A stretch of 64,000 nt of DNA from an uncultured Gammaproteobacteria bacterium (GTDB taxonomy: Bacteria; Patescibacteriota; Microgenomatia; UBA10105; UBA927): the NCBI GenBank assembly GCA_964448085.1, contig CAYUUX010000002.1, forward strand, positions 30,519 through 94,518, written 5' to 3'. The position numbers were made by a program, and so were the translations under genes. The notes beneath the pieces are model-generated. The model was not told where the DNA came from. It worked only from the letters and a program-made list of their open reading frames with translations, and ran no database searches. The stretch's first letter is position 1. Each line of letters starts with the position of its first letter. Positions 6,693-42,127 of this stretch are shown piece after piece.

Positions 6693-7820
6693 ATGTTACG
6701 AAACGCGATCATTCTTTTTATTTTAAATGATCCAATCACCCACTGGTGTGATTACGCATTTCAAACAGCAAAGCTTCTATCTAAAAAAAACACCATCGTA
6801 ATTTTTTGTTCGGAAGATACTATTTCATGGAAAAACGTATTGGGCTTGCGCAGGCGCGTGCCACTGTTTGAGAAACGATGGAACGCGCTTTTATTTCACC
6901 CCTTTTTTGTTATCCCCGGTCAACGTTTTCCAATTATTAAACACATGAATTATCGTATTAACGCATGGTGTTTGTATTGGTACTTGAAATTTAGCCAACC
7001 AGGAATAAAAAAATTCTTATGGTTCTTTGACCCATATTACGTTTCTTCTTTGATAAACATTTTTGTTCACTACCAGTCTATATACGATTGTGTTGATTAT
7101 TATGAAGGAGTATCAGAAGAGCTCAGGGTCCACAACAGATTTTTGTTCAGAAGAGCAACATACACGTTTGTTAATTCCCACGCTCTCCTGAATAAGTTTG
7201 GTGGATACAGAAAAAACGTTTCACTCGTTCCCCTCGGGTTTGCAAGCGATCTTTTTCAAACAAGACACGTCAATTCATCACGGGAAAACGGAATAGTTGC
7301 CGGTTTTGTTGGCGGCATTACTCGACGAATTGATTATCGCCTTTTAACATCCGTAGCAAAGCGTTTACCCGATATTCAATTTGTTTTTTACGGTGCCCGT
7401 CGAGATGACGCGTTCACCTCCGCCGGAAAGCTTTGTCCAGACATAGAGGAATTTTTCAGTCTCAAAAATGTTTTTTGGAAAGGGCCCGTCCCCAAAACGC
7501 TTATGCCATCCGTGATCTCCTCTTTTGATATTTGCCTCATTCCTTACACGAAGGACAAATTTAATTTATATTGTTACCCCATGAAAGTGATGGAATATTT
7601 CTATGTGGGGAAGCCCGTTCTTTCAACACCAATTGAGGAATTAAAACGCTTTCCTCAACTGATATCTATCGGTAAAACCGCAGAAGAATGGGAAGACAAT
7701 ATTTGGAAATTGTTGTCTGTTCCCTGGCCCGTTCGGTTTCAGAAAATACAAAGGGATACAGCAAAAAAGAACAGTTGGAAGAATAAGTTATTAGCCATGG
7801 AGCGCGTTATTCAACGATAG
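6693..7820 (+). CDS. glycosyltransferase, GT-B fold (GT1/GT4-like)
   Basis: The C-terminal half has a GT4-like nucleotide-binding pattern (GFVGGI...IQFVFYGA...KVMEYFYVGKPVLSTP). Confidence 0.5.
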   Translation: MLRNAIILFILNDPITHWCDYAFQTAKLLSKKNTIVIFCSEDTISWKNVLGLRRRVPLFEKRWNALLFHPFFVIPGQRFPIIKHMNYRINAWCLYWYLKFSQPGIKKFLWFFDPYYVSSLINIFVHYQSIYDCVDYYEGVSEELRVHNRFLFRRATYTFVNSHALLNKFGGYRKNVSLVPLGFASDLFQTRHVNSSRENGIVAGFVGGITRRIDYRLLTSVAKRLPDIQFVFYGARRDDAFTSAGKLCPDIEEFFSLKNVFWKGPVPKTLMPSVISSFDICLIPYTKDKFNLYCYPMKVMEYFYVGKPVLSTPIEELKRFPQLISIGKTAEEWEDNIWKLLSVPWPVRFQKIQRDTAKKNSWKNKLLAMERVIQR

Positions 7821-9471: not shown

Positions 9472-9475
9472 GGTA

Positions 9476-11042: not shown

Positions 11043-11096
11043 AAGTATATCAAGCGCAGAAAACCATCATGCGTGTTGCCTTGTATCATAAACGAG

Positions 11097-12218
11097 TCAT
11101 GGTAATTTTGTCAAACCACGGGCGTGCGAAGCAACAAACGCTTTTATTTGTTTTTGAAAAGCAGCTTTTGTAAATTTCTTTGCTTGTGTCTTACACGCTT
11201 TTTCCCAATTGTTTTTCTTTTGTATGAACTCAGCGATTGTTGTCATGAGCGCTTCTTTGGTTAATTCATAAAAAAACATCCCCGTTTCCCCCTCAATAAC
11301 GGTTTCGATAACGCCGCCAGAATGATACGCAAGGACAGGTGTTCCCGTGGCCATGGTTTCAACGGGAAGAATACCGAAATCCTCATCTTCAGATGGAAAA
11401 ATAAAAGCTCTGGCTTGTTTTAAATAACGCCATTTTTCTTGGTCAGTTATTTCTCCTAGAAATTCAACAGAAGGACCAGCGATTTTTTTAAGTTTTTCCC
11501 CATATCCCGCAAATCCCGCTCCAAACACCTTTAATGGAATCCGCATTGTTGTACAGGCGGCTATTGCCAAATCAATATGTTTTGCCTGCGCGAGTCTTCC
11601 ACCGGCGAGAAAGTAGTTTTGTTTTTTTAGCGGAAGCGTACCCGTTGGCTCGTTAACCGGTGGATAGAGCACAAGCGCTTCTTTCCTATAAAATTTTTTT
11701 ATGCGTTTGGCAACCTCATGAGAATTGGCAATAAAATAATCAACGTTTTGACTTGCCAAAACATCGGTGTTGCGCAAGAAATGATTCGCCACCTCTCCCA
11801 ATAACCGTACAATAAGATTCTGTTTCCAACTTCTTGCTGTTGCATAGCCATACAGATATCTTGGTGGTGTATGACAATAGCATATGTGGGTAGCCGATCC
11901 CTTGTGAATCATGTTCGATTGATATGCACCTGTGGCGGAAACAATAACGACATCGAAATTTGAAAAGTCCATAGAGCGAAAAACCGAAGGAGCCAATAAT
12001 CGCAAAGGGCTAATGAGTTTTTCCTTCCACGGAATATATTGGAGCCACGAAGGACGAATGTCCCATGATAGAAATCGGTTTTTGTGTGGACCGAGGAATT
12101 TTGGACAATATACAGTTGTAAATACTGGGGCATCAGGGAAAAGTTCATGGAGGGCCTCCAGCACTCGTTCTGCTCCCCCATACTCTTTAATATAGTCGTG
12201 AACCAGTGCTATTTTCAT
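11097..12218 (-). CDS. glycosyltransferase family 4 (GT-B)
   Basis: C-terminal FPSEDEDFGILPVETMATGTPVLAYHSGGVIETV, an E-x7-E type GT4 motif. Confidence 0.8.
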   Translation of the reverse strand: MKIALVHDYIKEYGGAERVLEALHELFPDAPVFTTVYCPKFLGPHKNRFLSWDIRPSWLQYIPWKEKLISPLRLLAPSVFRSMDFSNFDVVIVSATGAYQSNMIHKGSATHICYCHTPPRYLYGYATARSWKQNLIVRLLGEVANHFLRNTDVLASQNVDYFIANSHEVAKRIKKFYRKEALVLYPPVNEPTGTLPLKKQNYFLAGGRLAQAKHIDLAIAACTTMRIPLKVFGAGFAGYGEKLKKIAGPSVEFLGEITDQEKWRYLKQARAFIFPSEDEDFGILPVETMATGTPVLAYHSGGVIETVIEGETGMFFYELTKEALMTTIAEFIQKKNNWEKACKTQAKKFTKAAFQKQIKAFVASHARGLTKLP

Positions 12219-12225
12219 ATGTATA

Positions 12226-13173
12226 TTATATCAATGACATCTGTTCATCGATGGTTTTTTTCAATTCCCCCCTTTTGATGTTTGAGGATTGTTTGCCCGG
12301 CTCTATGGACGCTTGCAATCTCTTTATAAGGGAATGGAATCCCAGGTGTTGTAATATGTTGATGACGGCACCCGCTGAAAACTGTTGTATCAAAATCGGT
12401 TTGATCGATGTTTGGATTCTTATGTCTTGCTTTATGGTGGCGAGTGTTTTAGAAAGCATTGCCAGATTTTTATGTAAGATTAATTTGTCCTTTATTTTCT
12501 GCGAGAACGATGTATCTCTTTCGATATTTTCATAGATGTTTTCAATTGTAGAGTATCGCGTTAATAGATCCACAGCGGTTTTGGGTCCTATTCCTGGTAC
12601 TCCCGGATAATTATCCGATTGGTCTCCTGCAAGCGCCTTATAATCAGGTATTTGCGTTGGTTTTACTCCGAGACGCTCCTGAGTTTCTGAAACCCCATAT
12701 AATTTCGCTTCAGAAAGCCCTTTGGTTGGCATATATACTTTTGTGGTCTTGGTTGCGAGTTGTAAAATATCCTTATCCCCCGTAACAATAATTATTTGAT
12801 CAACCTTTTTGGAAAACTTTTTGCATAACGATCCGATTATATCGTCAGCCTCGAATCCGTCCCTTTCGCAGATAGGAACCTGCATTGCAGACACAATTTC
12901 GTGGATAAGGGGTATTTGATTTGCTAGTCCATCATCCATTTTGGGACGTTTTATTTGATAGTCTGCATAAAGTTTTTTTCTGAACGTCGGTTTTGGTCTG
13001 TCAAAAGTTACCACGAGATGGGTTGGGGTCAGATCGGTTACGAGTCGAAGAAGCATGGAGGTAAAACCATACGCTGCATTTACAAGGGTTCCGTCGGGTG
13101 CGGTAAGAGGAGGAAGCGCATGAAACGCACGATGTAATATTGCGTTTCCATCAATAATGATAAGTCGATTCAC
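12226..13173 (-). CDS. standalone 5'-3' exonuclease / flap endonuclease (Pol I N-terminal domain homolog)
   Basis: LIIIDGNAILHRAFHAL, GFEADDIIGSL and the H3TH segment YPGVPGIGPKTA. 315 aa with no polymerase domain. Confidence 0.8.
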   Translation of the reverse strand: MNRLIIIDGNAILHRAFHALPPLTAPDGTLVNAAYGFTSMLLRLVTDLTPTHLVVTFDRPKPTFRKKLYADYQIKRPKMDDGLANQIPLIHEIVSAMQVPICERDGFEADDIIGSLCKKFSKKVDQIIIVTGDKDILQLATKTTKVYMPTKGLSEAKLYGVSETQERLGVKPTQIPDYKALAGDQSDNYPGVPGIGPKTAVDLLTRYSTIENIYENIERDTSFSQKIKDKLILHKNLAMLSKTLATIKQDIRIQTSIKPILIQQFSAGAVINILQHLGFHSLIKRLQASIEPGKQSSNIKRGELKKTIDEQMSLI

Positions 13174-13187
13174 GGTGCTTAAAAAAA

Positions 13188-15071
13188 TTAAGAATTTTTT
13201 ATGAGTTCTTCAAACTCCTCCCCTTCCAGGGTTTCTCTTTTTACGAGTTCTTTCGTGATAAGATCCAGCTGCTTCTTGTGTTTTTTAAGAATAAAGATTG
13301 CTGTTTCATATCCCTCAAATACAAGTTTTTGAATTTCTCCATCGATTTTTCCGAGCATTTCAGGAGAAATTTGTTGTTGATCCATCAGTGATTTTCCCCA
13401 TTCGGTGACGTCAACATTTGGGCCGAAGTTTATTGGGCCAAGCGAGCTCATTCCGAATTCCATGACCATGTATCGCGCTATACGCGTTGCTTGATCGATG
13501 TCATTCGCAGCGCCACTTGTTATATCCTTATAGAGCAATTCTTCTGCGGCTCGTCCACCCATCATGGTCGCGATTTGATGTATGAGGTGAGATTTTGTTT
13601 CATGAAGCCTATCTTTTTCCGGAGGGGTCAGGGTATATCCAAGTGCCATACCTCGGGAAATAATAGAAATACGGTGTACCCGATCCATGTCGCCAAGATA
13701 ATAATTTACCACCGCATGTCCCGCTTCGTGTCCAGCAGTCATTCGTCTGTCTTGGTCACTTTGGAGCCTCTTTTTTTCCGGTCCCAATTTGACTTTGGTT
13801 GCAGACTCCTCAATATCCTCATGCGAAATTTCTTTTTTATTGTTTCTCGCAGCGTGAATTGCCGACTCATTCAGCATGTTTTCAAGGTCGGCTCCAGAAA
13901 ATCCAACAGTTCTTTTTGCAACCTTATCCCAATTCACTATTTTCGAAAAAGGTTTTCCTTTTGCATGAATAAGAAGAATTGATTTTCTTCCTTCCATATC
14001 GGGAAGGTCGAGCGTAACTCGTCGATCAAATCGGCCCGGCCTCGTCAAGGCGGGATCGAGTAAATCTCCCCTGTTGGTTGCCGCAACAACGAGTACGGCG
14101 GTGTTTGGTTCGAATCCGTCCATTTCTACAAGTATTTGGTTAAGCGTTTGTTCTCGTTCGTCGTGCCCGCCCATCGCGCCAACGGATCGCATGCGTCCTA
14201 TTGCATCGATTTCGTCAATGAAAATGATTGCTGGAGCAGTTTTTTTCGCGGTTGCGAAGAGATCACGTACCCGTGCAGCTCCGACACCAACAAGCATTTC
14301 CATAAACTCACTTCCCGCTATCGAATAAAAAGGGACTTTTGCCTCCCCCGCCATGGCTTTGGCCAGCAGGGTTTTTCCTGTTCCGCTTGGACCAACGAGT
14401 ATCACACCTTTTGGTGTGCGAGCACCGAGGGCTTTATATTTAGCGGGATTTTTTAAAAAATCGACGATTTCTACAACTTCGTTTTTTGCCTCATCAACAC
14501 CAGCAACATCCGCAAAAGTAATTTTAGGAAGATCTTTATTCCACAATTTGGCTTTACTTTGGCCAAATGAAAAAACGCTATCCTGCGCACCACGAGCCTG
14601 TCGAAACAGAAAAAGAAAAAAGACAACGGTCAGTACCAGTGGGAGCACGTTGGATAGGATGCCCATCCATATTTGGCTTGCATTCAGATCTTTTACTTTA
14701 ATTTCAATGGTTTTTGGATCAACGCCCGTGTCTTCAAGGAGTTTATATAGTGAATCTTGAGGCTCTTTATGCGTAATGACTTTTTTTCCGTCTTTATACA
14801 CAGCAGTGAGTTTCGTATCCTCCACCTCAATTGTTTGGATTTTATTATCTTTAATGTCCGATATCACTAGGGTAAACGGCTGTTCTGGTGTGGTTGCCGC
14901 TCCACCAGTTATATTTCCGAGAACTGAAAAGACAACGAAAATAATGAGCAACCCCGTGATGATATTCTTCAGATTTATATTCAATCGAAGTTCAAACATC
15001 TTCTTTGATTTTTTTGTTCCGTTTGTGGACACCCTTTTCTCTTGTTGCGAGGAATATTTTTTTGTTGTCAT
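13188..15071 (-). CDS. ftsH: ATP-dependent zinc metalloprotease FtsH
   Basis: N-terminal TM helices. AAA+ Walker [14 protein letters not shown], second region of homology, HEAGHAVV zinc motif. 627 aa. Confidence 0.9.
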
Positions 15072-16056: not shown

Positions 16057-17454
16057 TTATCGGCTTTGGGATCCTAGAGGAAAGGTGTTTGTTTCAATAA
16101 ACAGTGGCCTTCCTTCTGTGTCGTCTACTGCCACTATCATTCCCTGAGATTCTTCTCCCATTATTTTTCTATATTGCAAATTGAAAACAAAGAGAAATTT
16201 TTTGCCGGTGAAATACTCTGCGGCATACCCAAACTGTCTGACTCCAGTGAATATGATCCGTTTTCCTAATTCCCCAAAATTAACATGGAGCCGGATCAAT
16301 TTTTCACTTTTCTCAACGTGTTCTGCTGATTCAACTTGCCCAACCCGCATTTCCACGTTGTACCAATCGTCAATTGTGATGGTTGTTTTTTTACTTGTAG
16401 GAACGGAGTAGGCATTAGTTATACCTGTCAAATTTTTAACCTCTTGTAACGTTGATTCTGCATATCTCATGGCTTGTTCTTTCCCACGAGAAAGAATCTC
16501 CTTTATATATTCGGGATGCTTCTGCATTTCCTTATATTGTTTTCGTGCCGGTGCAAAATGCTGTAGGAGCGATTGATATAAATATTCCTTTACTTCTATA
16601 TCCGCTATTTCTCCCCTCTTATATGCTTGTTTCATTTGCTGTACCTTTTCCTTATCACCAAAAAATTCCAGATATACAAAAACCATGTTTCCATCAATGT
16701 GACCGGGATCCGTTTTATGAATACGGGTTGGATCTGTATATGTTCCCATCACCTGTTTTTTGATGGTTTCTTCTGTTTCAAAAATGCTAATAATATTGCC
16801 TAAAGACTTACTCATTTTTCGTTTTCCATCGGTACCAAGTATTGTTGCAACGTTTTTTGAAATGAGTGGATCGGATAATTTAAAGCATGATGTGTTGTAG
16901 GTTCGGTTAAACAGTTGTGCAATATCTCTGGCAATTTCGACATGTTGTTTTTGATCTTTTCCTACCGGAACGAGGTCGGGTTTATATAAAAGAATGTCAG
17001 CCGCCATGAGAATTGGATAACTAAATAGACCGACGTTAATAGTATCCTCAGCGGTGTCTTTTTGGAGTTTATCCTTATATGCATGCGCCCGTTTTAACAA
17101 CCCAAGTGGAGTAAAATTATTGAGAATTGTTTGTAGTTCTGAATGGAGCCCCCCGATGTCGGATTGTCTAAAAAAGATAAGTCGATCGAATTCTTCTGGT
17201 TCCAAAAAACCTTTCAAGAGAGCGAGTTCGCTAAGTATCAATGTTTCTGTGTTCCTTTGTAATTTATCTTTATTCTGAACAGTTGTCAGTGCGTGATAGT
17301 CAGCCACAAAAAGAAAGCACTCATGTGTGTGTGCCATGTCAATAAATTGTTTGACTGCTCCTAGGTAGTTGCCGATATGGAGAGTGCCATCACCACTTGG
17401 TGTTATACCAGATAAAACTCGTTTCATAGTTATTCCTTTCATATATTGTATCAT
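16057..17454 (-). CDS. trpS: tryptophanyl-tRNA synthetase with C-terminal Trbp111/EMAPII-like tRNA-binding domain
   Basis: Class I core with TPSGDGTLHIGNYLGA (HIGH-type) and KMSKSLGN. About 110 extra C-terminal residues (VGQVESAEHV...LIRLHVNFGE...ESQGMIVAV) match the Myf/Trbp111 OB-fold tRNA-binding domain. Confidence 0.8.
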   Translation of the reverse strand: MIQYMKGITMKRVLSGITPSGDGTLHIGNYLGAVKQFIDMAHTHECFLFVADYHALTTVQNKDKLQRNTETLILSELALLKGFLEPEEFDRLIFFRQSDIGGLHSELQTILNNFTPLGLLKRAHAYKDKLQKDTAEDTINVGLFSYPILMAADILLYKPDLVPVGKDQKQHVEIARDIAQLFNRTYNTSCFKLSDPLISKNVATILGTDGKRKMSKSLGNIISIFETEETIKKQVMGTYTDPTRIHKTDPGHIDGNMVFVYLEFFGDKEKVQQMKQAYKRGEIADIEVKEYLYQSLLQHFAPARKQYKEMQKHPEYIKEILSRGKEQAMRYAESTLQEVKNLTGITNAYSVPTSKKTTITIDDWYNVEMRVGQVESAEHVEKSEKLIRLHVNFGELGKRIIFTGVRQFGYAAEYFTGKKFLFVFNLQYRKIMGEESQGMIVAVDDTEGRPLFIETNTFPLGSQSR

Positions 17455-19236: not shown

Positions 19237-20865
19237 TTATTTTGAATGGATGCGACTGCATCCCGTATTCAGCATAATAACCATAGACACGAGAAGCAAT
19301 GGTGGTATCGGTCCGAAATAGCCAGAAAAAACCGCTATCGGCAGCGATGTGGCAGCTAAGAAAACGATGATTCCTGACAGCCCTGTTATTGCAGAATAGA
19401 GAGCCAATAGTATTGGTAGCTCATTGCTGTGACCCAACTCTTTTCTTCTTCGAATAATCACAACACCATAGAGAATCACTCCCAACAGAAATAATGGAAA
19501 AAATAGCGTTTTGTACATGACAATAATAGCGTTTATGCTTTTTATTCGTATATCTTCCACATCAACTCTTCGAGGATATTCTAACGTTATTTTTTGGATC
19601 AATTCGTAATTTTGTTGAGGCTCCCGGATCTCATCATAAAATACGTGAAGATTTTTGAAAAAGAATATCTGTTCAAATAAATCTATCGTAAACATATGTA
19701 TCTTTGCTATGTGTTCATACCGAAAGGGTGGTAGAAACGTGTTTCTTTTTTTCATGCAATCAAGTGTCCGTAGGTTGCACGCAGTATTAATTTCTTTCGC
19801 AATTTGTCGGTATGTTGTTAGTGCATCTTTTGGTGTTTTGTAGCGGCCGGCATCGGCAACTGCATCGCGTAAGGCCCACAGAAACCACCCTCCACCAATA
19901 TCTAATTCATTTCCGTCTAAAGGTGCATTTTTTTTCGTCTCAGTTGACCAGTTTTCATAAATGTATCCCTCTAATTGTTCATCGATTATCTTCCATGTTG
20001 GGCTTGCAGACGTTATTTTTTCTCTAACGCTTTTAGGAACGGGAACATATATCCTATCAGTATCGTGCTTTACTCGTGTAAGTGCGCCATACGCAGCTAT
20101 GAAATCAGCGTTTTGACTTTCTGTAAGCATATATGTTCCGTAATAGACCTTGTTTAAAATGAGTATTGGCGTAATCCCAATAACAACCATGCTAAGACAA
20201 GCAAGTGTTGTGGAGAGACCTCGTATTCCCACACGATGCAGATATGAGTAAATCGTTATATCGACACCGAGTATGCACAGCGGAATTGCCAACCATATAC
20301 TTTCCTCTCTTGTTGTCCAGGCACACGCAAAGAATACCCCGCTCATCATAGCCCAGACATATTGTGCGTACCCTTTTTGTTTGGTACGTGTTAAGAATGT
20401 TGCTATTGCAAAAGAACTAATAGCAAGCAAAGAAAGGGAATAATAAATAGCTGGACGATTTACACGGAGATTGAGATTGCCATCAAAAGAGAAGGGATTA
20501 AACAATAGAACTGTAAACATTACGATAAACATGAAGATTTTAGCCTTTTTTGCTAAAAGCCACACTAGCAGCGACGCACAGAAACACGCAATGGTATAGA
20601 GAACTTGTTGAGCAAGCAGTAGTGGAATGTTAAGAGTATGCGATAAGGCTATAAAGATAGGATAAAATGCACCTTTGGCCAGTGTACGGTTAGAATATTC
20701 CCCCAACCATTTTCCATGCAATATTGCATCTGCTTGATTAATAAATAACAGATCGTCGTGTGGAGAATTTGCGTCAATTCCAAGAGATAGTCCAGAAAAT
20801 AACCAAAGCTTCACTCCTGTCAGCACAACAACTGTAACAATTATGCAAACAATGGATCGTTTCAT
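19237..20865 (-). CDS. large polytopic membrane protein of unknown function (possible GT-C-like glycosyltransferase or polysaccharide-modifying integral membrane protein)
   Basis: 542 aa. N-terminal cluster of about 8 TM helices, a central soluble region, and 2-3 C-terminal TM helices. No diagnostic motif seen. Confidence 0.35.
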   Translation of the reverse strand: MKRSIVCIIVTVVVLTGVKLWLFSGLSLGIDANSPHDDLLFINQADAILHGKWLGEYSNRTLAKGAFYPIFIALSHTLNIPLLLAQQVLYTIACFCASLLVWLLAKKAKIFMFIVMFTVLLFNPFSFDGNLNLRVNRPAIYYSLSLLAISSFAIATFLTRTKQKGYAQYVWAMMSGVFFACAWTTREESIWLAIPLCILGVDITIYSYLHRVGIRGLSTTLACLSMVVIGITPILILNKVYYGTYMLTESQNADFIAAYGALTRVKHDTDRIYVPVPKSVREKITSASPTWKIIDEQLEGYIYENWSTETKKNAPLDGNELDIGGGWFLWALRDAVADAGRYKTPKDALTTYRQIAKEINTACNLRTLDCMKKRNTFLPPFRYEHIAKIHMFTIDLFEQIFFFKNLHVFYDEIREPQQNYELIQKITLEYPRRVDVEDIRIKSINAIIVMYKTLFFPLFLLGVILYGVVIIRRRKELGHSNELPILLALYSAITGLSGIIVFLAATSLPIAVFSGYFGPIPPLLLVSMVIMLNTGCSRIHSK

Positions 20866-20955: not shown

Positions 20956-21954
20956 TTATCGGTCGTTTTCAAATACCTCTTGCAGAAGAGGGGCAATGCT
21001 TTTAAAAAGTGCATCCGCTGCAAGCGTATGCCCCTTTTCATTGGGGTGTCCTGGATATTGTTGATCTTCCAAGCTTTGTAATGTGTGTGTTTGATATATA
21101 GGAAGAAGATCAACGGTGTTACCAACGCTGTTGGTTTCTTTGATGATTTGCATCATTGCGTCGTGTGTCATCGTCGCCTCTTTAGAATCATTAAATATCG
21201 GAAAAACAACAATCCGATATTCCACACCGTTTGTATTTAACATATGAATCATGGTCTGTAGGGGTTCTAGTATGACCGATTTTTGTTTTTCTGTTCCCTC
21301 AAATGCATCAAAATTTTCCATACCAGAAAGCGTAGATAAATGTATTAATGTAAAGAGACGGTATGTTTTGAAATGATTAAAGAGAAAAGCATTAATAAAC
21401 CTATTTTGATACTTGCCATCAATTGCAGTCCACGTTGCTCCTTTCATAAAGATTACAGGAGTGCTAAAGAAATCATTCATACACGTTTGAATAATAACGA
21501 GATCTGGTTTCATTAACGACATGTATTTTTTTAGAAGCAGAGCCTCGCGTGTGGTCTCATATCCCACAATACCCCCATTAATAATACGTATGTTTTTATT
21601 TGGAAACGCTTCTGATAACTTTTCTTGAAGTAAGGACGGATAGGAACCATAGTCTGATATGGAATCCCCAAGAATTACTATGCGATAGTCTATTGTGTCA
21701 TCGTGTACTGTGCGTTCAATATTATTTTCAAAATCCGACTTTATATATCCGAAAGTCGAATCAAATACGTACTCCGTGTTTGTACGGAACGTCTCTGTTT
21801 GTGGGGACGCTGTCCGTATGTGCCCCCAAAGGTTTTTCTGTATATATTTGTCTTCTAACGATATGGAAAAGAAGCTTAGAAATCGAAGAGCTAGTTCAAC
21901 AAAAACCATCGCAACACATAAGGCTAAACTGAAATATGCCAGGCGTTTTATCAT
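20956..21954 (-). CDS. SGNH/GDSL-family hydrolase (esterase/acyltransferase-like), membrane-anchored
   Basis: N-terminal signal-anchor. Block I motif IVILGDSISDYG. Conserved distal GHPN-like region (YPGHPNEKGH). Confidence 0.65.
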   Translation of the reverse strand: MIKRLAYFSLALCVAMVFVELALRFLSFFSISLEDKYIQKNLWGHIRTASPQTETFRTNTEYVFDSTFGYIKSDFENNIERTVHDDTIDYRIVILGDSISDYGSYPSLLQEKLSEAFPNKNIRIINGGIVGYETTREALLLKKYMSLMKPDLVIIQTCMNDFFSTPVIFMKGATWTAIDGKYQNRFINAFLFNHFKTYRLFTLIHLSTLSGMENFDAFEGTEKQKSVILEPLQTMIHMLNTNGVEYRIVVFPIFNDSKEATMTHDAMMQIIKETNSVGNTVDLLPIYQTHTLQSLEDQQYPGHPNEKGHTLAADALFKSIAPLLQEVFENDR

Positions 21955-22997
21955 GGTGTCCCAGTGTATTCTTTTTCATACGGCATAATTTTTTCCGTAA
22001 GTATTTTTGCTATATACGCATGACCAGCTTTCGTATTATGTAAATCTTCCGGTTGGATAAAATATGATGCGTAAGTATCCCTATCTGTTTGAAACATGCT
22101 GGTGCCGATATCAATAAATACAAAATTGTATTTAGAAGCAATTTCCTCTAATTGTTGAGCTGTTTTTTTATATGCTGTTTTGTAGGTTTGTTCGTTTTCT
22201 GGTTTAAAATAGGTAGGAAGCAATACGAGAACATATACCCCTCCCCCTGCCTTTGTTTGATTATTCATTTCATTCAAAATAGCATCGATGATGGGGAGAT
22301 TTTTCTCATCATTTGTTTGTTTCGGAAGATACCGCTGTATAAATTTATATATATGTAATTCTGTGAGGCCTGCGCGAATTTGTGTTAGTAACGTTTTCCA
22401 CCCCATTGTTGTTTTGATGGGATAATTGAGGTTTACAAGTGACGTACCCTGAAGTGTCAGATATGGTTTATCGAAATATTCAAACAATGAGGGAGATGTG
22501 GCACGGTCTAAATCATCGGCGATAATTGCGTTGATGTGTATTTGATGGTTTATGGTTTTGGCATCTCGTTCGTATCGCAGATACATTTGATCAAGTCCAT
22601 ATGCGTCCTGACCAAGGTTGTACGTTTTCCAATTATTGTTAGTTAATAGCGAACACCATGTTTCATAATCACCGACACCAAGCCCCAGGGTAAATGAGTC
22701 CCCAGAACAGATAATACTTATCTTTTTTTCTTCCTGAATAGGTGTTATGCGCAATCTATTTGCATCGGTTGTAAAATGGCTACCCAGTCCAAATATATTT
22801 TCTATATGAAGATTGGGTTTGTTCACCCATCCAAGTAAGGGATCAAAATCAAGATGCTGTGCTATCCACGGTCGAGATGTCACTATTCGTTTTTGGATCG
22901 TACGGACGGTATGGATCCACCCAAGTGCCCCCTCAAGGAGCATAAGAAGCAGACAGCAGAGCACCAAACCCGCGACTATTTCAAGAGATCGCTTCAT
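21951..22997 (-). CDS. SGNH/GDSL-family hydrolase, paralog of the adjacent gene
   Basis: Signal-anchor. IICSGDSFTLGLG GDS(L) block. C-terminal HNTKAGH resembles block V (DxxH). Overlaps the upstream paralog by 4 nt. Confidence 0.65.
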   Translation of the reverse strand: MKRSLEIVAGLVLCCLLLMLLEGALGWIHTVRTIQKRIVTSRPWIAQHLDFDPLLGWVNKPNLHIENIFGLGSHFTTDANRLRITPIQEEKKISIICSGDSFTLGLGVGDYETWCSLLTNNNWKTYNLGQDAYGLDQMYLRYERDAKTINHQIHINAIIADDLDRATSPSLFEYFDKPYLTLQGTSLVNLNYPIKTTMGWKTLLTQIRAGLTELHIYKFIQRYLPKQTNDEKNLPIIDAILNEMNNQTKAGGGVYVLVLLPTYFKPENEQTYKTAYKKTAQQLEEIASKYNFVFIDIGTSMFQTDRDTYASYFIQPEDLHNTKAGHAYIAKILTEKIMPYEKEYTGTP

Positions 22998-23166: not shown

Positions 23167-24084
23167 ATGAATGCTAAACAACTATTAAAACACTGGGTGT
23201 TTCAATATCTCGTATATTTTTTCCCCAGATATTCTTCTGTTGATCCATCCGTTACCATATGCACTCTTCTTTGTCATAAAGATGTGTATATGTATTTGTA
23301 TATGATGCAATCGTTTCACTATTTTAGCGGGTTGAGCCACCCCTTGTTAATTGTAAACGACGGGACGTTAACGAAGCAGGATGTCCATTTGCTTCAGCGA
23401 TTTTTTGTTGTAACCGTTATCACCAAACAGACACTTTTGCGCAAGATAGCTTTGCTGTTACGAGGGTATCCGTATTTACGGAGATTCATACTTGATGAGT
23501 ATACGCCGATTATTAAGTGGAAAATTGCCCTTATGCTATCCAATCCATCAAAGAAATATATGTTTATTGATAGTGATATTTTATTTTTTCAGAGACCACA
23601 GGAGATTATCAAGTGGTTTACTAGTGATGTTTCGTATTGTTTAAATCTTGAATATGCAGAACGAGAACGAACGTTTAAATATTCCGACGATGAAAATTAT
23701 TTGGACGTCTATCATGCATATCGAACTTCCTTAAAAATGTTGCAGTTTCCGCACGCAAATACGTTATTCAACAACGGAATTTTTTGCGTTCCTGACTCCA
23801 GCCTTATTCAACCGAAACAATTAAATACAATACTTAGGGTTGTTCATAATTCCTATTTTGATAATCAATTTGGAACCGATGAGCTCATTTTAAGTTGTCT
23901 TCTTGATCGTCAACAAACACGTTCACTTCCAAAACTTCTCTATAGGATTCAACTTGATAGCGTGCGAAAAAAACACGAACGATTAATATGTAAACACTAT
24001 TGCTGGCGGGCCAAAGTATTATTCCCACGTGATGCAATTGTTTTAGCGTTGCGAACACGGTTTTTTAAACCGGTGAATATATGA
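23167..24084 (+). CDS. hypothetical protein, possible nucleotide-diphospho-sugar transferase (DxD motif)
   Basis: 305 aa. KYMFIDSDILFF is a GT-A/GT8-like DxD context. No other family signature recognised. Confidence 0.35.
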   Translation: MNAKQLLKHWVFQYLVYFFPRYSSVDPSVTICTLLCHKDVYMYLYMMQSFHYFSGLSHPLLIVNDGTLTKQDVHLLQRFFVVTVITKQTLLRKIALLLRGYPYLRRFILDEYTPIIKWKIALMLSNPSKKYMFIDSDILFFQRPQEIIKWFTSDVSYCLNLEYAERERTFKYSDDENYLDVYHAYRTSLKMLQFPHANTLFNNGIFCVPDSSLIQPKQLNTILRVVHNSYFDNQFGTDELILSCLLDRQQTRSLPKLLYRIQLDSVRKKHERLICKHYCWRAKVLFPRDAIVLALRTRFFKPVNI

Positions 24085-24701
24085 AAAAAACCCCGATGAT
24101 AGTTTGCATCGACTCTCTAAAAGCATTTGATGATGCAACCAGTTCATATTTTGTGTCCCTTTCAGGCTCTTACCGATTATTTTTTATCTTAGGCTCTCAT
24201 CTATTTTCCTTACGAGAACTCATACATTGCGACATTCGCCGTCACGTTCATAATATATATCGCAGCTTTTCTTCGAATTCCCGTTTTTTTCTGCCGATTG
24301 GATTTGTTCCTTTTGGAAGGTGTCCTTTCATTGCAACGATTAATCAAAGTGTTGCGCTCGTTGCCCTTTGGTTTTCATTGAAACGATTTTTTCGTATCCA
24401 AACCTTTCGGTCGTTTCACCCAATTGTATATTTCGTGCATACCAAGCGCATGGCGTGTCCTCATTGGATGTATGTACCTGGTATTTTTAAAGAACGGTGT
24501 TGTGTGCTTGACATCACAAGAAGACACACGCCCGATTCTTCCCCACCATTCTTACCGCATGAAGAAAAAATGCAACAGTACGCAGACGTTATTCTCACTA
24601 ACTCTATTGTTGCGAAACGAGATACACGGTTTCATGTAGTTTCAAAAGATCCAAATAAGAAATCAACAGCTTTATTTTCTGTTTTGAAACCATACCTATG
24701 A
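24081..24701 (+). CDS. hypothetical protein
   Basis: 206 aa, His/Cys/Phe-rich, no recognisable domain. Start overlaps the upstream stop (ATGA) and its stop overlaps the radical SAM start, so it is translationally coupled. Confidence 0.3.
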   Translation: MKKTPMIVCIDSLKAFDDATSSYFVSLSGSYRLFFILGSHLFSLRELIHCDIRRHVHNIYRSFSSNSRFFLPIGFVPFGRCPFIATINQSVALVALWFSLKRFFRIQTFRSFHPIVYFVHTKRMACPHWMYVPGIFKERCCVLDITRRHTPDSSPPFLPHEEKMQQYADVILTNSIVAKRDTRFHVVSKDPNKKSTALFSVLKPYL

Positions 24702-25639
24702 TGTCACGGATGAACATTTATACGTATTTTCGAACACATATCCCCTTAGTGTTTGATGCAATAGAAATTGAAACGACCGCTGTGTGCAATAGGGCGTGTA
24801 GTTTTTGCCCCAATTCTCTTGTTGGGAGGAAAAAAGGGGTAATGAAAACACACGACGTTTTGCACATTTTAGATCAATTGGGCATGATGCGATACCATGG
24901 AAGAATTTCCTTACATATGTATGGGGAACCTTTGTTGGATAAACGGTTGCCCTCACTGGTTGCCTATGCACGGCGGAAGTGCCCTGAAGCTTTTATCAAA
25001 ATAAATTCTAACGGAGATTTTGTCACACGAACGAATGTTACTCAACTCACACAGGCAGGAATGGATCTTCTCTATATAAGCCAATATGATAATAGCGTAC
25101 AGCAAAACGTTAAAGACGTTCTAAATTGGATGACCAGCACTAGACCTCAATGGGTACACCACCTTCAGGTCCGTGTTACGAGTAGCTTTTCTGACAATCG
25201 TGCGGGTTTGTTGCCTCACATTGGTGCCCAACATAAAGTGATGCACACCCCCTGTTATCGACCGTTGACCACAATGGTAATCAATTGGGAAGGGAATCAC
25301 GTTTTATGTTGTAATGACTATTTTGGAACGTGCGTTATTGGGTCAATTCATGCCACTCCACTTTTATCATTATGGTTTGCGTCTCGACTGGTGCGTATAC
25401 GAAAAATGCTTCGTGCGGGTAAGAGAAAGGCTCTACCCCTTTGTTCTCGGTGTAGTTATGAGCAAGTATCATTTGATGGCGACAATACAAACGAAGAACA
25501 TTTTCATCTGTATGGAATTTTTACCAGTCTTTTTGTTCCACTTTCTGTTTTGTGGAAAAATAGTTCTACTGTCGATTTTGGAACTCTTGTGCGTACACGA
25601 TATACTAGTGCCAATCCTGTCCAAAATAACACTACATAA
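24698..25639 (+). CDS. radical SAM protein with C-terminal Cys-rich SPASM/twitch-like auxiliary-cluster region
   Basis: CX3CX2C at residues about 29-36 (CNRACSFC). Further Cys cluster LCCNDYFGTC...PLCSRCSY in the C-terminal third. 313 aa. Confidence 0.75.
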   Translation: MMSRMNIYTYFRTHIPLVFDAIEIETTAVCNRACSFCPNSLVGRKKGVMKTHDVLHILDQLGMMRYHGRISLHMYGEPLLDKRLPSLVAYARRKCPEAFIKINSNGDFVTRTNVTQLTQAGMDLLYISQYDNSVQQNVKDVLNWMTSTRPQWVHHLQVRVTSSFSDNRAGLLPHIGAQHKVMHTPCYRPLTTMVINWEGNHVLCCNDYFGTCVIGSIHATPLLSLWFASRLVRIRKMLRAGKRKALPLCSRCSYEQVSFDGDNTNEEHFHLYGIFTSLFVPLSVLWKNSSTVDFGTLVRTRYTSANPVQNNTT

Positions 25640-26880
25640 TGAAACCCTCGATTGTCGTTGTGTTTGATGACCTTTTTCCCGGCGGTTTGAGAACGTTGAA
25701 TGAAAAAATTTGGAATGAGTATAACCACAAAGGTCAATATTCGATGGTTGTTGTGTCGGGAATAAATTTTGACCAACAGCTTCAGAAGGATACCTTTCCC
25801 TATGCTGATGAACTCCATGTGTATTCCATACCCCCAATGAATCAATTTTTTTTCTTTTTCTATTGTTGTTGGCATACAATTCGTCTTATTCATCACATAA
25901 AGAACAATCATACGATTCAATGTGTTATCGGAAACAATTCTTTTTCTGGTGCAGCCGCCCGCGTCGTGAGTTTGGTTTTTGGAATACGGTATATATATTT
26001 TTACCACGGTTCTTTGTTTCAGGAGGTTCGCTCTTTGGGACACATCTCCACAACCTTTTTTAAAAAAGCAAAGATGTGGTTCATGCACCATTTTTATTGG
26101 TTTGTACAATATTGTTGTGTATATGCAGCCCCAGTGGTGTGCTTTAGTACCCATTCTCGGTTTCTTTTACACCACGATTTTCATAAGACAAAACACGTGC
26201 ACACACTATCTGTTCCTTTCCGGTATACCCCTCTCTCTCAACGGACAAAAAGGAGTATGAAAGAGACGTTGGGATTTCATCAGCGTGTCCACGTGCTGTT
26301 ATTCCCCTCCCGGCTCGAGCCAAGAAAAGGGTTGCACATGTTAACACAAGCCCTTTCCCTGTTGCCAAACACCCTATCCGTTGTTGTGTTGGTTGCTGGG
26401 CCACTCCATGGTGAATCTATTGATTACCTTGTTGGTCTTATAAAACAGACTGTGTCAAATACAGAACGCCAACGGATATATTTTATGGGAGAAGTTCCTG
26501 TATCAAACATGAAAGTGCTTTACGGGGCAGCAGATGTTACCATTGTGCCCTCCATAGGTCTTGAAACTCTTGGTATGGTGACTTTGGAATCCTTATCCTA
26601 CGGCACGCCCGTCATAGGCTTTCCTACGGGTGCCACACCAGACATTCTGACCGGCATAGACAAGAACCTCATTGCAAAGCGTATTTCGCCTCAATCGCTT
26701 GCGCGCACCATTACACTCTTTTTTCACAGGCCGCATGTTCATTCTATGTTGATGCAAAAACAGATTCAAGCCTATATACAGACACATCATTCCCCGAGTC
26801 TTTTTACCCATCAATTGACAGAAGTGTTGTCCAATAGAGTCAGATCGCCAAAGGTCTCCTCTGCATACGAGCGTATATGA
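25639..26880 (+). CDS. glycosyltransferase family 4 (GT-B)
   Basis: C-terminal LFPSRLEPRKG...GLETLGMVTLESLSYGTPVIGFPTGATPDIL is a GT4 signature. The start overlaps the radical SAM stop (TAATG). Confidence 0.75.
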   Translation: MKPSIVVVFDDLFPGGLRTLNEKIWNEYNHKGQYSMVVVSGINFDQQLQKDTFPYADELHVYSIPPMNQFFFFFYCCWHTIRLIHHIKNNHTIQCVIGNNSFSGAAARVVSLVFGIRYIYFYHGSLFQEVRSLGHISTTFFKKAKMWFMHHFYWFVQYCCVYAAPVVCFSTHSRFLLHHDFHKTKHVHTLSVPFRYTPLSQRTKRSMKETLGFHQRVHVLLFPSRLEPRKGLHMLTQALSLLPNTLSVVVLVAGPLHGESIDYLVGLIKQTVSNTERQRIYFMGEVPVSNMKVLYGAADVTIVPSIGLETLGMVTLESLSYGTPVIGFPTGATPDILTGIDKNLIAKRISPQSLARTITLFFHRPHVHSMLMQKQIQAYIQTHHSPSLFTHQLTEVLSNRVRSPKVSSAYERI

Positions 26881-27545
26881 TAAAAGCAGTTATTTTTGAT
26901 CTCGGTAATGTTTTAGTGTTGGGGAATAATTCCAAAACACTTTCCCAGTTTGCTCCATTTTTGCAAAGACCATATTCCGATGAGGTATTGGAGGTTACAT
27001 TATATGGGTACTCTTCCAAAGCAAAACACTGGGAGACGCAGGGAGAACGAACCAAAACGCTGGAAGCATATCAACTCGGATTACTTTCTACCAGGCAATT
27101 CTATGAGTATATGCGTGACCAATTGAGATTTTCCGACGAATTGACGTTTGATCAATTCAAACATATCTGGCCTGCTCGTTTTTCTCGCTACACAGAAACT
27201 CTCACGCTTCTTAAGCGCTTGAATCATCTGCAACGATACATGCTTTCCGATACTAATGCATTAGACACATTCTGGATTCAACACGCGTTTCCAGATATTT
27301 TTGTACACTTTAATAAACTTTTTCTCTCGTATAAAACACACGTCAATAAGTATAGTTTTGAAGCGTGGCACAATATACTCAACTATAGTCATTTGCTCCC
27401 CGAGGAGCATCTGTTTATTGATGATCGCGAGGAGCATGTGGTGAGGGCCCAGAGATTAGGATTGAAAGGAATAGTTTTTTGTGGATCAAAACAACTTGAG
27501 AAAGAACTCATAGCGTTCGGATGTTTTAAGAAGCGCTCATTTTAA
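26877..27545 (+). CDS. HAD-superfamily hydrolase, YihX-like sugar-phosphate phosphatase
   Basis: MIKAVIFDLGNVLV N-terminal motif I as in E. coli YihX (alpha-D-glucose-1-phosphatase). Distal LFIDDREEHV motif IV-like. Confidence 0.8.
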   Translation: MIKAVIFDLGNVLVLGNNSKTLSQFAPFLQRPYSDEVLEVTLYGYSSKAKHWETQGERTKTLEAYQLGLLSTRQFYEYMRDQLRFSDELTFDQFKHIWPARFSRYTETLTLLKRLNHLQRYMLSDTNALDTFWIQHAFPDIFVHFNKLFLSYKTHVNKYSFEAWHNILNYSHLLPEEHLFIDDREEHVVRAQRLGLKGIVFCGSKQLEKELIAFGCFKKRSF

Positions 27546-28819: not shown

Positions 28820-29680
28820 ATGAGCACAGATCTCAAAGCCACAAATGAGCAGTTTGTTGAATATCTTACATCCAGACGGCGCGCTCGGGCAACTGTTGTT
28901 GCGTACAAAAAAGATATCGACCAACTGCTATCATTTTTTACCACGATGGGTAAAAAAGCAATTGCCGAAGTGACATACGATGAAATAACTGCATTTTTAA
29001 AAAAACTTGCAAACGATAGCTATACTCCCAAGTCAATATCAAGAAAAATTAATTCCATCAAAACCTTTTTCCGATTCCTCAAAGCGTCTGGAGTCATACA
29101 AACAGATCCGGCACTTGAAGTCGCACACCCAAAATACGAGGTAAAACCCCCAAGGATCCTTTCAAAGCTTGAGTACCGAGCGTTGCGGGATACCTGTCGC
29201 AGCGACGTTCGGATGTATGCAATTGTCGAACTATTCTTGCAGACGGGTATCCGCATTGGCGAGCTTGCTGCACTTACCATGGATGACGTGAAACAAAACG
29301 AGCTGCACATAGCTGCGCAGGAGGGTCACGAAGAACGGATGGTTCCTTTAAATAAGGCTGCCCTTGAGGCTCTGGAAAAATATCGCGTGGGGCGAGCTGA
29401 TATGACAAAAAGCACAGCGCTTTTTATCACAAAGACTGGGCGGCCACTGTTGATACGCAATATTAGAACGGCAATTGATCGGTATTTCCGGATTGCGGGT
29501 ATTGAAGGGGCAAAAGTCAATGATCTTCGCCATACATTTATCGCACATCATCTTCTTGCTGGAACGCCAATAACGACCCTTTCCAAGCTGGTAGGTCACA
29601 AACGCCTATCCACAACGGAGAAATATTTAGAGCTTGTGAAGGGAAATCAATCTGAGCGCGTCAAATTGGAAGAATTGTAA
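28820..29680 (+). CDS. tyrosine site-specific recombinase, XerC/XerD family
   Basis: 286 aa. Catalytic R...HxxR...Y pattern (DLRHTFIAHHLL...LVGHKRLSTTEKYL). N-terminal SAM-like domain. Confidence 0.8.
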   Translation: MSTDLKATNEQFVEYLTSRRRARATVVAYKKDIDQLLSFFTTMGKKAIAEVTYDEITAFLKKLANDSYTPKSISRKINSIKTFFRFLKASGVIQTDPALEVAHPKYEVKPPRILSKLEYRALRDTCRSDVRMYAIVELFLQTGIRIGELAALTMDDVKQNELHIAAQEGHEERMVPLNKAALEALEKYRVGRADMTKSTALFITKTGRPLLIRNIRTAIDRYFRIAGIEGAKVNDLRHTFIAHHLLAGTPITTLSKLVGHKRLSTTEKYLELVKGNQSERVKLEEL

Positions 29681-33150: not shown

Positions 33151-33714
33151 TCACGCGCGCTCAACATAACTTCCGGTTTCCGGATCTATTGCAATACGTT
33201 CCCCTTGTTTGATAAACAAAGGGACGGTGACAACGGCACCCGTTTCTACAACAACAGTCTTTGTTGCTCCTGATACGGTATTGCCCCGTGCGCCGTCGGT
33301 TGCCTCAGTAACCAACAGGCGTACTTTTTTGGGAAGCCGGATACCAATAGCTTCTTCTTCATGAATCAGCACCTGGTATGTGTCGTTGGGTTTGAGATAT
33401 TTAACAAAATCCCCCAACAATACTCCTGGTACAGTCACCTGATCGAATGATACATTATCCATGAAAACGAACCCCTCACCTTCCGGATATAAATACTGCA
33501 TTTCGTGCGTTTCAACCGGAAGCTCCTCGACAGATTCCCCGGATTTATAGGTAAATTCCTGAACTTTGCCCGTTTTGAGTGATTTGAGTCTGGTTCGTAC
33601 AAACGCAGAACCCTTTCCCGGATTTACGTGTTGGAACTCCACGATTTGATGGGGTTCATCCTTAAATGTGACAAATAACCCCTTTTTGAATTCTGATGTA
33701 GAGATGATAGACAT
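33151..33714 (-). CDS. efp: elongation factor P
   Basis: MSIISTSEFKKG...NPGKGSAFVRTRLKSLKTGK with the conserved Lys in the PGKG loop. ORF-track start trimmed to the internal Met. Confidence 0.9.
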   Translation of the reverse strand: MSIISTSEFKKGLFVTFKDEPHQIVEFQHVNPGKGSAFVRTRLKSLKTGKVQEFTYKSGESVEELPVETHEMQYLYPEGEGFVFMDNVSFDQVTVPGVLLGDFVKYLKPNDTYQVLIHEEEAIGIRLPKKVRLLVTEATDGARGNTVSGATKTVVVETGAVVTVPLFIKQGERIAIDPETGSYVERA

Positions 33715-33739
33715 GGAAGGTATTATCGCACGAAGCGGA

Positions 33740-34777
33740 TCACTTTTCAAACAGATCTTTTGGTGGAAAAAATGTCGTATCGTTAATATCCCTCGTATTT
33801 GCAAAGAGCATGCACAACCGGTCGATTCCCAATGCAATGCCGCTTGTCTCCGGCATCCCTACTCGAAGCGCTTCAATAAAATCATGATCATATTCATACA
33901 TGGTGTGACCTTTTTTTTGAATTTCTCGCATTTCTTTTTCAAACCGGCTTTTCTGTTCTTGCCAGTCAGTCAATTCTTCGTAGCAATCCGCAAGTTCAAG
34001 ACCCTCAATATAAAGCTCAAAGCGCCTTGCAAAACGTGGATCGTTTACGTCTTTTTTCGCAAGTGCTGCGATAGACGATGGGAATCCATAGAGGATCGTG
34101 GGATGGTTTTTCCCAATGTGTGGTTCAATCTCATTGAGAAAGATCTGATTATACAGTTCTTCCCATGTGGTGTTTGGCATGATTGTATATCCTTTTGCTT
34201 TTGCAAGCTTTTTTGCTTGCCGTATTGAAAAAAACGTATGGAGGTCGATATGTGCATAGCGTTGAAACGCTTCAGCTACAGAAATTCGTTCCCATTTTTT
34301 ATTCAGGTCGCAGACATGGTGTTGGTATTGAAACTTTCCGCTTATCCCCAGGGAGGATGCGATTGACAGAAGGAGGTCTTGGCAATCCTTCATGATACGC
34401 TCGTATGCGTCTCCTACTCTATACCATTCCAGAATCGTAAATTCCGGAAGATGAGATTCGCTTTGATTTTCCGTATTGCGGAAGCTTTTGGTTATCGAAT
34501 AACAATTGCCGATGCCCGCAACAATGAGTTTTTTTAGCGCCAATTCCGGGGATGTTGAAAGGTATGCACGCGTTTTGTTCCTTTGCCTATCCAAAAGATC
34601 CGTTTCAAACACTTCAAGGTATGATTCCGCAGCGGGATAGCGGATAAGCATGGGGGTTTCAACCTCGTGAAATCGTCTGGTTTCAAAAAAAGAACGTATG
34701 GCTGTAATTACTTTTTCGCGAAGAAAATACTTGTCCCAGAGAGCGGGCGTGTTTTTCAGTTTTTGCCAGGTTTTCAT
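33740..34777 (-). CDS. epmA: EF-P lysine-lysyltransferase EpmA (GenX/PoxA; truncated class II LysRS paralog)
   Basis: 345 aa. Class II motifs: motif 1 FFETRRFHEVETPML, motif 2 FRNTENQSESHLPEFTILEWY, motif 3 GIALGIDRL. No anticodon-binding domain. Adjacent to efp. Confidence 0.7.
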   Translation of the reverse strand: MKTWQKLKNTPALWDKYFLREKVITAIRSFFETRRFHEVETPMLIRYPAAESYLEVFETDLLDRQRNKTRAYLSTSPELALKKLIVAGIGNCYSITKSFRNTENQSESHLPEFTILEWYRVGDAYERIMKDCQDLLLSIASSLGISGKFQYQHHVCDLNKKWERISVAEAFQRYAHIDLHTFFSIRQAKKLAKAKGYTIMPNTTWEELYNQIFLNEIEPHIGKNHPTILYGFPSSIAALAKKDVNDPRFARRFELYIEGLELADCYEELTDWQEQKSRFEKEMREIQKKGHTMYEYDHDFIEALRVGMPETSGIALGIDRLCMLFANTRDINDTTFFPPKDLFEK

Positions 34778-40862: not shown

Positions 40863-40865
40863 GCG

Positions 40866-42122: not shown

Positions 42123-42127
42123 TACGC

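Follow-up and report, generated by a model that had tools for sequence, protein, structure and literature searches.

A BtrN-family radical SAM enzyme linked to a free-standing GT4 N-terminal domain in a predicted surface-glycan operon of a candidate phyla radiation bacterium

We analysed a five-gene operon, positions 23167 to 27545 on the plus strand of a 64,000-nucleotide stretch of contig CAYUUX010000002.1 (hereafter the window), which belongs to a Microgenomates-like bacterium of the candidate phyla radiation (CPR). Its third gene, g3, encodes a radical S-adenosylmethionine (SAM) enzyme of the BtrN family. All five open reading frames (ORFs) were confirmed at their coordinates. They comprise g1 (23167..24084, 305 residues (aa)), a predicted GT8-like GT-A glycosyltransferase of the retaining type; g2 (24081..24701, 206 aa), predicted to be a free-standing N-terminal, acceptor-side domain of a GT4 glycosyltransferase without the donor-binding C-domain; g3 (24698..25639, 313 aa), a twitch radical SAM enzyme of the clade called 'CCND' below; g4 (25639..26880, 413 aa), a full-length GT4 glycosyltransferase; and g5 (26877..27545, 222 aa), an accessory HAD-IA phosphatase-type hydrolase. 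The chain of overlapping stops and starts proposed in an earlier sequence-only reading is present at every junction, as ATGA between g1 and g2 (24081-24084), g2 and g3 (24698-24701) and g4 and g5 (26877-26880), and as TAATG between g3 and g4 (25637-25641). On four further metagenome contigs with this sequence, of which JGI Ga0236239_1000012 (106 kb) is the longest, independent gene callers arrived at identical models. The 305-aa start of g1 is backed by its orthologues, which align from residue 1.

The g3 protein passes the Pfam cut-offs for both Radical_SAM (42.2 bits, cut-off 29.5) and SPASM (40.7 bits, cut-off 21.5). Among its 33 NCBIfam matches, the 25 that were listed all lie far under their cut-offs, the best reaching 48 bits against 380. 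We performed a search of all PDB sequences with a family profile of 32 relatives. This search returned BtrN (4M7T/4M7S) as the top match over the whole length (233 bits, E=3.7e-68); the next structure scored 48 bits, MoaA 40 and anSME about 34. In pairwise comparison, g3 and BtrN are 31% identical over 239 aa (E=3e-37). By sequence comparison, BtrN is the sole close solved relative of g3. The sequence-only reading had correctly named BtrN as an analogue, and the housekeeping radical SAM identity that it had set against its own proposal is not what the profile returns (MoaA 40 bits vs 233 for BtrN). BtrN is a twitch dehydrogenase that acts on a carbinol C-H in oxidising its substrate 2-deoxy-scyllo-inosamine by two electrons; its radical SAM cluster is bound by C16/C20/C23 and its auxiliary cluster is Cys4-ligated (PMC9012708, PMC10337720).

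The cluster ligands of g3 were located in an alignment of 85 sequences, comprising 84 relatives and BtrN. The radical SAM motif C30/C34/C37 (CX3CX2C) corresponds to C16/C20/C23 of BtrN and is invariant in 84/84 relatives. C186, C204, C249 and C252 are kept in 80-82 of the 84, and their 18/45/3 spacing is that of C169/C187/C232/C235 in BtrN. R168 and D207, the equivalents of BtrN R152 and D190, are conserved as well. The SPASM motif CX2CX5CX3C is absent from the alignment of g3 and its relatives, which leaves four auxiliary Cys, and the C-terminal domain is therefore a twitch rather than a full SPASM domain. One auxiliary [4Fe-4S] cluster, held by four Cys, is predicted. The CX3CX2C motif and C-terminal Cys cluster recognised earlier are thus borne out by Pfam and the alignment, and the C-terminal ligands are conserved rather than lost in orthologues; of the label 'SPASM/twitch-type', the single-cluster twitch part stands and the full SPASM part falls, there being four invariant auxiliary Cys only. 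Beyond its last Cys, g3 carries a C-terminal tail of about 60 aa (residues ~255-313, window 25460-25636). This tail is missing from BtrN and most of the family, and is shared only with the closest CPR orthologues (P0002-P0004), with the motif D-x-T-x-E-E-H-F-H-x-x-G-(I/L)-F.

Among 1.84e9 proteins, the g2 family has only 6 cluster representatives. Pfam scans of 10 members at E<=10 and a profile search of PDB gave no match. A profile of these 10 diverse members matches, in register and with 30-45 bits, the N-terminal ~200 residues of full-length GT4s in CPR loci, including proteins at 11471-12694 of locus L004 (45 bits), at 6693-7820 of the window (33.5 bits, residues 3-112) and in locus L037 (30 bits). 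Comparison of the g2 family with full-length GT4s by hhalign, the GT4 alignment including the window protein at 6693-7820, gave 98.5% with E=2e-15, g2 residues 26-198 aligning with GT4 residues 31-189. The motif F-x-P-x-G-x2-P-F-x-R-x7-N is common to g2 and the GT4 N-domains. The aligned region stops where the Glycos_transf_1 donor-binding domain starts, and all four GT4 proteins matched by g2 have Glycos_transf_1 in their C-terminal half. The g2 protein ends some 10-15 residues past the inter-domain linker and has no C-terminal nucleotide-sugar (donor) binding domain. Because this domain is lacking and the length is 205-216 aa family-wide, g2 is not a complete glycosyltransferase alone. The profile comparisons identify it as a predicted free-standing N-terminal half of a GT4 enzyme, where the sequence-only reading had seen no recognisable family. 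The window GT4 at 6693..7820 (plus strand), with its g2-type N-domain and with Glyco_trans_1_4/Glycos_transf_1 in its C-half, would be the parent type of g2.

Nine residues (F70, P72, P77, R80, N88, P114, G134, E138 and D169) are invariant in the 10 members of the g2 family, among which identity between lineages is 17-27%. No Cys or His is conserved in these members; the description of g2 as His/Cys-rich holds for the window copy (6 Cys, 10 His) and not for the family. A weak hhalign signal between g2 and the g4 family (10.7%) probably comes from one member of the g4 alignment with a g2-type N-domain.

The order g1-g2-radical SAM-GT4 was found in at least five distinct CPR lineages. It is present on Microgenomates GW2011_GWB1_40_9-like contigs (L001-L003, L005), in a Gottesmanbacteria metagenome-assembled genome (L004/L006) and on two further metagenome contigs (L085, L086), and the most distant g2 members (L088, L089/L090) have the order g2-GT4-radical SAM-GT4 without g1. 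Since the order recurs across CPR lineages, the arrangement is not a matter of chance. A BtrN-like radical SAM gene lies at most two genes from every g2 found, which bears out the co-occurrence that the sequence-only reading had proposed to check; a GT4 is likewise linked. The six radical SAM enzymes closest to g3 are all g2-linked. In the fetched family loci, g1 and g2 were not found outside CPR loci. No g5 homologue adjoins the module in the other loci, g5 being confined to the version in this genome. What is conserved is a core of g2, the radical SAM enzyme and a GT4, usually with g1. The surroundings of the core in L004, L088 and L089 include Bac_transf, ABC2_membrane/ABC_tran (Wzm-Wzt), Polysacc_synt, Wzy_C, further GT4/GT2, sulfatase/LtaS-like and PAPS_reduct genes. 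The Gottesmanbacteria locus L004 also contains (12700-14411) a Methyltransf_24 gene and, two genes downstream of the module, another radical SAM/SPASM gene of 340 aa, unrelated to the first. Locus L005 (CAYRFA010000021.1) is labelled 'uncultured Gammaproteobacteria bacterium'; its block spacing and scores match those of the Microgenomates loci L001-L003, and it is probably a mis-binned CPR contig.

The GT-A fold of g1 is closest to GT8 members. No Pfam match (GT8 models included) and no NCBIfam match was obtained at E<=0.1, and the GT8 assignment is by fold only; identity to the GT8 enzymes LgtC, glycogenin, GlyE, the LARGE1 xylosyltransferase domain, the UGGT catalytic domain and WbbM is only 9-15%. 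D135 and D137 (DxD) and H277 are invariant in 38 sequences, and the D-to-H spacing of 140 resembles the Asp105-His244 spacing of LgtC. Two g1 relatives match PF11051 (Mannosyl_trans3) weakly. The 'DxD protein' of the sequence-only reading thus keeps its DxD and is revised, on the modelled fold, to a GT8-like glycosyltransferase, predicted to be of the Mn/DxD type. The identification of g4 as a GT4 was sound: it matches Glycos_transf_1 with 73.9 bits (cut-off 26.4) and Glyco_trans_1_4 with 63.2 bits, and has full GT-B length. No NCBIfam equivalog comes near its cut-off for g4. Its orthologues, 39-46% identical, lie directly downstream of the radical SAM gene in L001 and L004. The g5 protein, with the N-terminal motif FDLGNV, passes TIGR01509 (generic HAD-IA v3; 33.2 bits, cut-off 29.4). 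Its top NCBIfam match, the YihX-type glucose-1-phosphatase model NF006991, reaches 57.6 bits against a cut-off of 295; g5 is thus a HAD-IA hydrolase, and 'YihX-like' denotes resemblance only.

We performed a family scan with one genome per species, which yielded 272 confirmed relatives, and 80 loci were fetched. Among these loci are ones from Cloacimonadota, Brocadia, Desulfobulbus, myxobacteria, Omnitrophota, many DPANN and other archaea, Acetivibrio and Photorhabdus. Clustering of the neighbours of the radical SAM genes, with cluster representatives verified against Pfam, gave, by number of loci, GT4 (27), GT2 (22), Wzx (14), B12-radical SAM (12), methyltransferase (10), Wzt (9) and short-chain dehydrogenase/reductase (SDR) epimerase (9). 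A glycosyltransferase directly adjoins the radical SAM gene in 32/81 loci and lies at most 4 kb away in 48/81. The residue after the second auxiliary ligand divides the family. It is Cys in 74/84 relatives (C205 in g3, within 'CCND'), Phe or Tyr in BtrN (F188, CFED) and its nearest sequences (CFED/CYED/CFND), and Ala in two other relatives; g3 therefore does not carry the BtrN-clade signature C[F/Y]ED. A DegT aminotransferase is fused or within 5 kb in 5/8 loci lacking the CC motif vs 2/74 CC loci (Fisher p=4e-5, the related sequences not being independent). On these alignments and loci, BtrN-proper is a small side branch, and the bulk of the family, hundreds of loci in anaerobic bacteria, CPR and archaea, lies in polysaccharide loci and has the extra conserved Cys. 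Within the searches made, BtrN is the only characterised member of the family, and literature searches on BtrN-like enzymes and polysaccharide, on radical SAM/SPASM enzymes in an O-antigen context and on DUF6625 found nothing relevant.

Several individual loci of the family have arrangements of their own. In Halobacteriovorax marinus (L060, 9980-11923), a CC-less BtrN-like enzyme and a DegT/DnrJ/EryC1 aminotransferase are fused in one ORF, which would place the 'oxidise then transaminate' pair BtrN/BtrS in one polypeptide. In Photorhabdus kayaii DSM 15194 (L081, 1857-6149), four consecutive genes encode a DHQ (dehydroquinate)-synthase-like protein, a further ORF product, a GT4 and a BtrN-like enzyme; this entomopathogen row has the look of a 2-deoxystreptamine-type (aminoglycoside-like) cluster. 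Its radical SAM enzyme is the sequence nearest BtrN, with an unreadable residue at the C205 position; since the next ORF overlaps the 235-aa BtrN-like ORF, there may be a frameshift or fusion. In two uncultured archaea (L028, 8906-10816; L029, 8957-10714), DUF6625 is fused N-terminally to a CC-clade BtrN-like enzyme. DUF6625 is a Pfam family of unknown function with a DxD-like FTDLDI motif, and is possibly another GT-A-type transferase. A kinship between g1 and DUF6625 was rejected (hhalign 1%).

Taken as a whole, the operon is probably a cell-surface glycan tailoring operon of a CPR bacterium, in which the BtrN-type enzyme g3 would modify a sugar or cyclitol by radical chemistry, epimerisation being favoured, with g2 as an adaptor. 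The five genes would form one translationally coupled unit in which g1 and g4 build or extend a sugar chain. The CX3CX2C cluster of g3 would cleave SAM, and the resulting 5'-deoxyadenosyl radical would take a hydrogen from a carbon bearing a hydroxyl group, the carbohydrate-like substrate lying near the Cys4 auxiliary cluster, which would stand in place of the electron-accepting cluster of BtrN. We hold these first chemical steps with good confidence from homology to BtrN. Equally, the genomic context gives good confidence that the pathway is one of cell-surface glycan assembly rather than of an aminocyclitol antibiotic, a peptide or a cofactor. The earlier proposal of a modified sugar or a protein or peptide modification is thus strongly supported in its first part, by homology and context, and by nothing in its second. 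The outcome would be a keto-sugar, as with BtrN, or an epimer, in which case Cys205, beside an auxiliary-cluster ligand, would hand back a hydrogen atom. Oxidation to the ketone is the default reading. Within the sugar-modifying scheme we nonetheless lean slightly towards epimerisation; a redox-neutral outcome is favoured by a CCND clade that lacks an aminotransferase partner and has a conserved Cys at the auxiliary-cluster hairpin, features resembling the Cys-dependent radical SAM sugar epimerases NeoN and HygY. Having no donor binding, g2 would be a non-catalytic acceptor-binding or adaptor subunit that holds a glycan intermediate for g3, the GT4 or both, as its strict linkage to the two suggests. 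The HAD phosphatase g5 and the divergent SGNH genes described below would be lineage-specific accessories, and export would probably rely on other genes of the window, Wzm/Wzt and Wzx/Wzy. A more elaborate form of this scheme, in which g2 is the substrate-recognition subunit of g3 (as RRE domains are for maturases of RiPPs, ribosomally synthesised and post-translationally modified peptides) and CCND enzymes are Cys205 epimerases acting on lipid-linked glycan after transfer, is speculative and seems improbable.

Several points weigh against the glycan-tailoring scheme. The operon holds no nucleotide-sugar synthesis gene to hint at the substrate, and neither g5 nor the SGNH genes are conserved with the module, which makes the five-gene unit peculiar to this genome. 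The epimerase assignment depends on a single conserved Cys plus the absence of a partner gene, and the Fisher test of the CC motif against DegT is inflated by phylogenetic non-independence. The chemistry of the CCND clade is itself proposed from sequence, and the role of g2 is purely our inference, its AF2 structure model being poor (pLDDT 48).

It is possible, if on balance unlikely, that g3 is a plain BtrN-type dehydrogenase whose ketone is processed by enzymes encoded elsewhere into an amino or rare sugar of the glycan. BtrN, the only characterised homologue, is a dehydrogenase (PMC9012708), g3 keeps the Cys4 auxiliary cluster and the R152/D190 equivalents, and a DegT and GFO/IDH/MocA pair lies at 4.5-6.6 kb in the window, 18 kb upstream. 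However, an aminotransferase neighbours the CCND clade in only two of 74 loci, while more than half of the BtrN-proper loci have one, once as a fusion. In a separate sub-locus, the DegT/GFO pair already suffices by itself for NAD-dependent oxidation and transamination, and the conserved Cys205 would have no role under plain dehydrogenation. We regard as very improbable a pathway to a 2-deoxystreptamine-type aminocyclitol or small pseudo-oligosaccharide, with g3 a true BtrN orthologue and the glycosyltransferases decorating the cyclitol in the manner of BtrM. Homology to BtrN over the full length, the GT4 neighbour also present in the Photorhabdus locus, which does have a 2-deoxy-scyllo-inosose synthase-type (DHQ-synthase-like) gene, and a weak NCBIfam match of g4 to the inositol-phosphate glycosyltransferase MshA (51 bits, cut-off 462) would agree with it. 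Yet a DHQ-synthase-like or inositol-phosphate synthase gene was found neither in the operon nor in any scanned window ORF, no aminotransferase adjoins the operon (the only DegT being the one 18 kb away), g3 falls in the CCND clade rather than BtrN-proper, and the orthologous modules sit inside Wzx/Wzy/ABC polysaccharide loci.

The Pfam SPASM match, sulfatase-family genes near the module in L001 and L089, and the distant structural relationship to anSME might instead point to a SPASM-type protein or peptide maturase (anSME-like or RiPP-type) acting on a glycan-assembly protein, for example of the sulfatase/alkaline-phosphatase family. This is hardly credible: the four auxiliary Cys provide for one cluster without CX2CX5CX3C, the g3 profile prefers BtrN to anSME by 233 bits to about 34, the operon has no sulfatase gene or small precursor ORF, and the NCBIfam peptide-maturase models all lie far under their cut-offs. 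We give scarcely any credence, either, to g2 being a decaying GT4 pseudogene fragment without function of its own. It is paralogous to full-length GT4s nearby, though truncated, and has diverged fast between lineages, but its length is constant, nine residues are invariant in 10 divergent members, its start and stop overlap the flanking genes, and it keeps the same position beside the radical SAM enzyme and GT4 in all lineages found. These features argue for purifying selection on an intact g2 ORF.

Known systems resemble parts of the module. BtrN, the 2-deoxy-scyllo-inosamine dehydrogenase of the Bacillus circulans butirosin pathway and the founding twitch-domain radical SAM dehydrogenase, is like g3 in size class, motifs, auxiliary spacing and twitch domain. 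Unlike BtrN, g3 has CCND instead of CFED, has no 2-deoxy-scyllo-inosose synthase or aminotransferase partner, and is encoded in a glycosyltransferase operon of a CPR bacterium. The anSME/SPASM maturases share the superfamily, the Pfam SPASM match and an auxiliary cluster near the active site with g3, but bind two auxiliary clusters and act on proteins or peptides, whereas g3 has one cluster. Alg13/Alg14 is a split GT-B enzyme in which Alg14 is the N-terminal, acceptor-side half, as g2 would be; here, however, no separate C-terminal half is encoded near g2, the adjacent g4 is full-length, and the obligate neighbour of g2, a radical SAM enzyme, has no equivalent in Alg13/Alg14. Among radical SAM sugar enzymes, a single Cys, such as Cys249 of NeoN, can decide between epimerase and dehydrogenase, and the twitch enzyme HygY reportedly gains dehydrogenase activity when one Cys is mutated (both as cited in PMC10991966). 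NeoN and HygY, which belong to aminoglycoside pathways, abstract a hydrogen at a sugar carbon and return one from an enzyme Cys, and the clade of g3 has an extra conserved Cys that is absent from BtrN; they act on free pseudo-oligosaccharide antibiotics, whereas the g3 clade sits in polysaccharide loci.

The enzyme family itself is known, and current understanding is not overturned. Relative to the literature searched, the assignments of g1 and g2 and the obligate pairing of a radical SAM enzyme with a half-GT4 in CPR bacteria appear to be new, as do the minor-branch position of BtrN-proper and the tracking of aminotransferase linkage by the CC vs C[F/Y] signature. The CCND clade is widespread in anaerobic bacteria, DPANN and other archaea. 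Should it oxidise or epimerise sugars radically while glycans are assembled, it would add, so far unnoticed, to the variety of surface glycans among organisms that account for much of the uncultured biosphere, and CCND epimerases would provide a NAD-independent route, not described before, to rare cell-surface sugars by inverting unactivated stereocentres. The CPR-specific pairing would be a case of a degenerate glycosyltransferase domain recruited as the partner of a radical enzyme.

Upstream of g1 and divergent from it on the minus strand lie the tandem SGNH genes that the sequence-only reading had placed beside the operon. Both are confirmed by Pfam: the first (21951..22997, 348 aa) matches Lipase_GDSL_2 with 36 bits (cut-off 32.9), and the second (20956..21954, 332 aa), which overlaps it by 4 nt, matches Lipase_GDSL_2 with 37.2 bits and Lipase_GDSL with 31.2 bits. 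The last gene of this unit (19237..20865, minus strand) encodes a hydrophobic, probably membrane protein of 542 aa, whose membership of the module is uncertain; it gave zero Pfam, NCBIfam or PDB matches. A GT-C/PMT-like identity for the 542-aa protein was rejected, there being no BLASTP similarity to the PMT_2/GT-C proteins near archaeal BtrN-like genes and no Pfam or PDB match. A 169-nt gap separates g1 from the divergent unit. Scans for promoter and terminator consensus sequences gave counts at the level of shuffled sequence (15 vs 14.7; 6 vs 5.0) and were uninformative. The GC content is 37-40% over 20-26 kb (the SGNH/g1-g3 region) vs 42-45% in the flanks, and a XerC/D-type tyrosine recombinase gene (28820-29680) lies 1.3 kb downstream of g5. 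Both observations are compatible with horizontal acquisition of the module.

The window also harbors a complete ABC-transporter-type (Wzm/Wzt) polysaccharide locus at 74-12218. It contains a Wzy_C-like gene, RmlC, an SDR epimerase/dehydratase, a GT2, the DegT and GFO/IDH/MocA oxidoreductase genes, the GT4 with the g2-type N-domain, another GT2, Wzt, Wzm, an AA_kinase-family gene and a GT4. Between this locus and the g1-g5 module lie some 7 kb with housekeeping genes for a 5'-3' exonuclease, FtsH, tryptophanyl-tRNA synthetase (TrpRS) and a PALP enzyme. Yet another group of glycan genes, the third, lies on the minus strand at 37829-43408 and encodes a DUF4012 protein of 838 aa, a Wzx-type flippase (Polysacc_synt) and a member of the Wzy_C family; in locus L089, which also contains g2, DUF4012 is joined to an epimerase. 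The TrpRS ORF (16057-17454, minus strand) has a C-terminal extension of ~100 aa that, by eye only, resembles a tRNA-binding domain. At 33151-34777 (minus strand), the ORF identified by eye as elongation factor P, as called from a TTG start, overlaps an upstream EpmA/PoxA-like lysyl-tRNA-synthetase paralogue by ~100 nt, and its real start is therefore probably further downstream.

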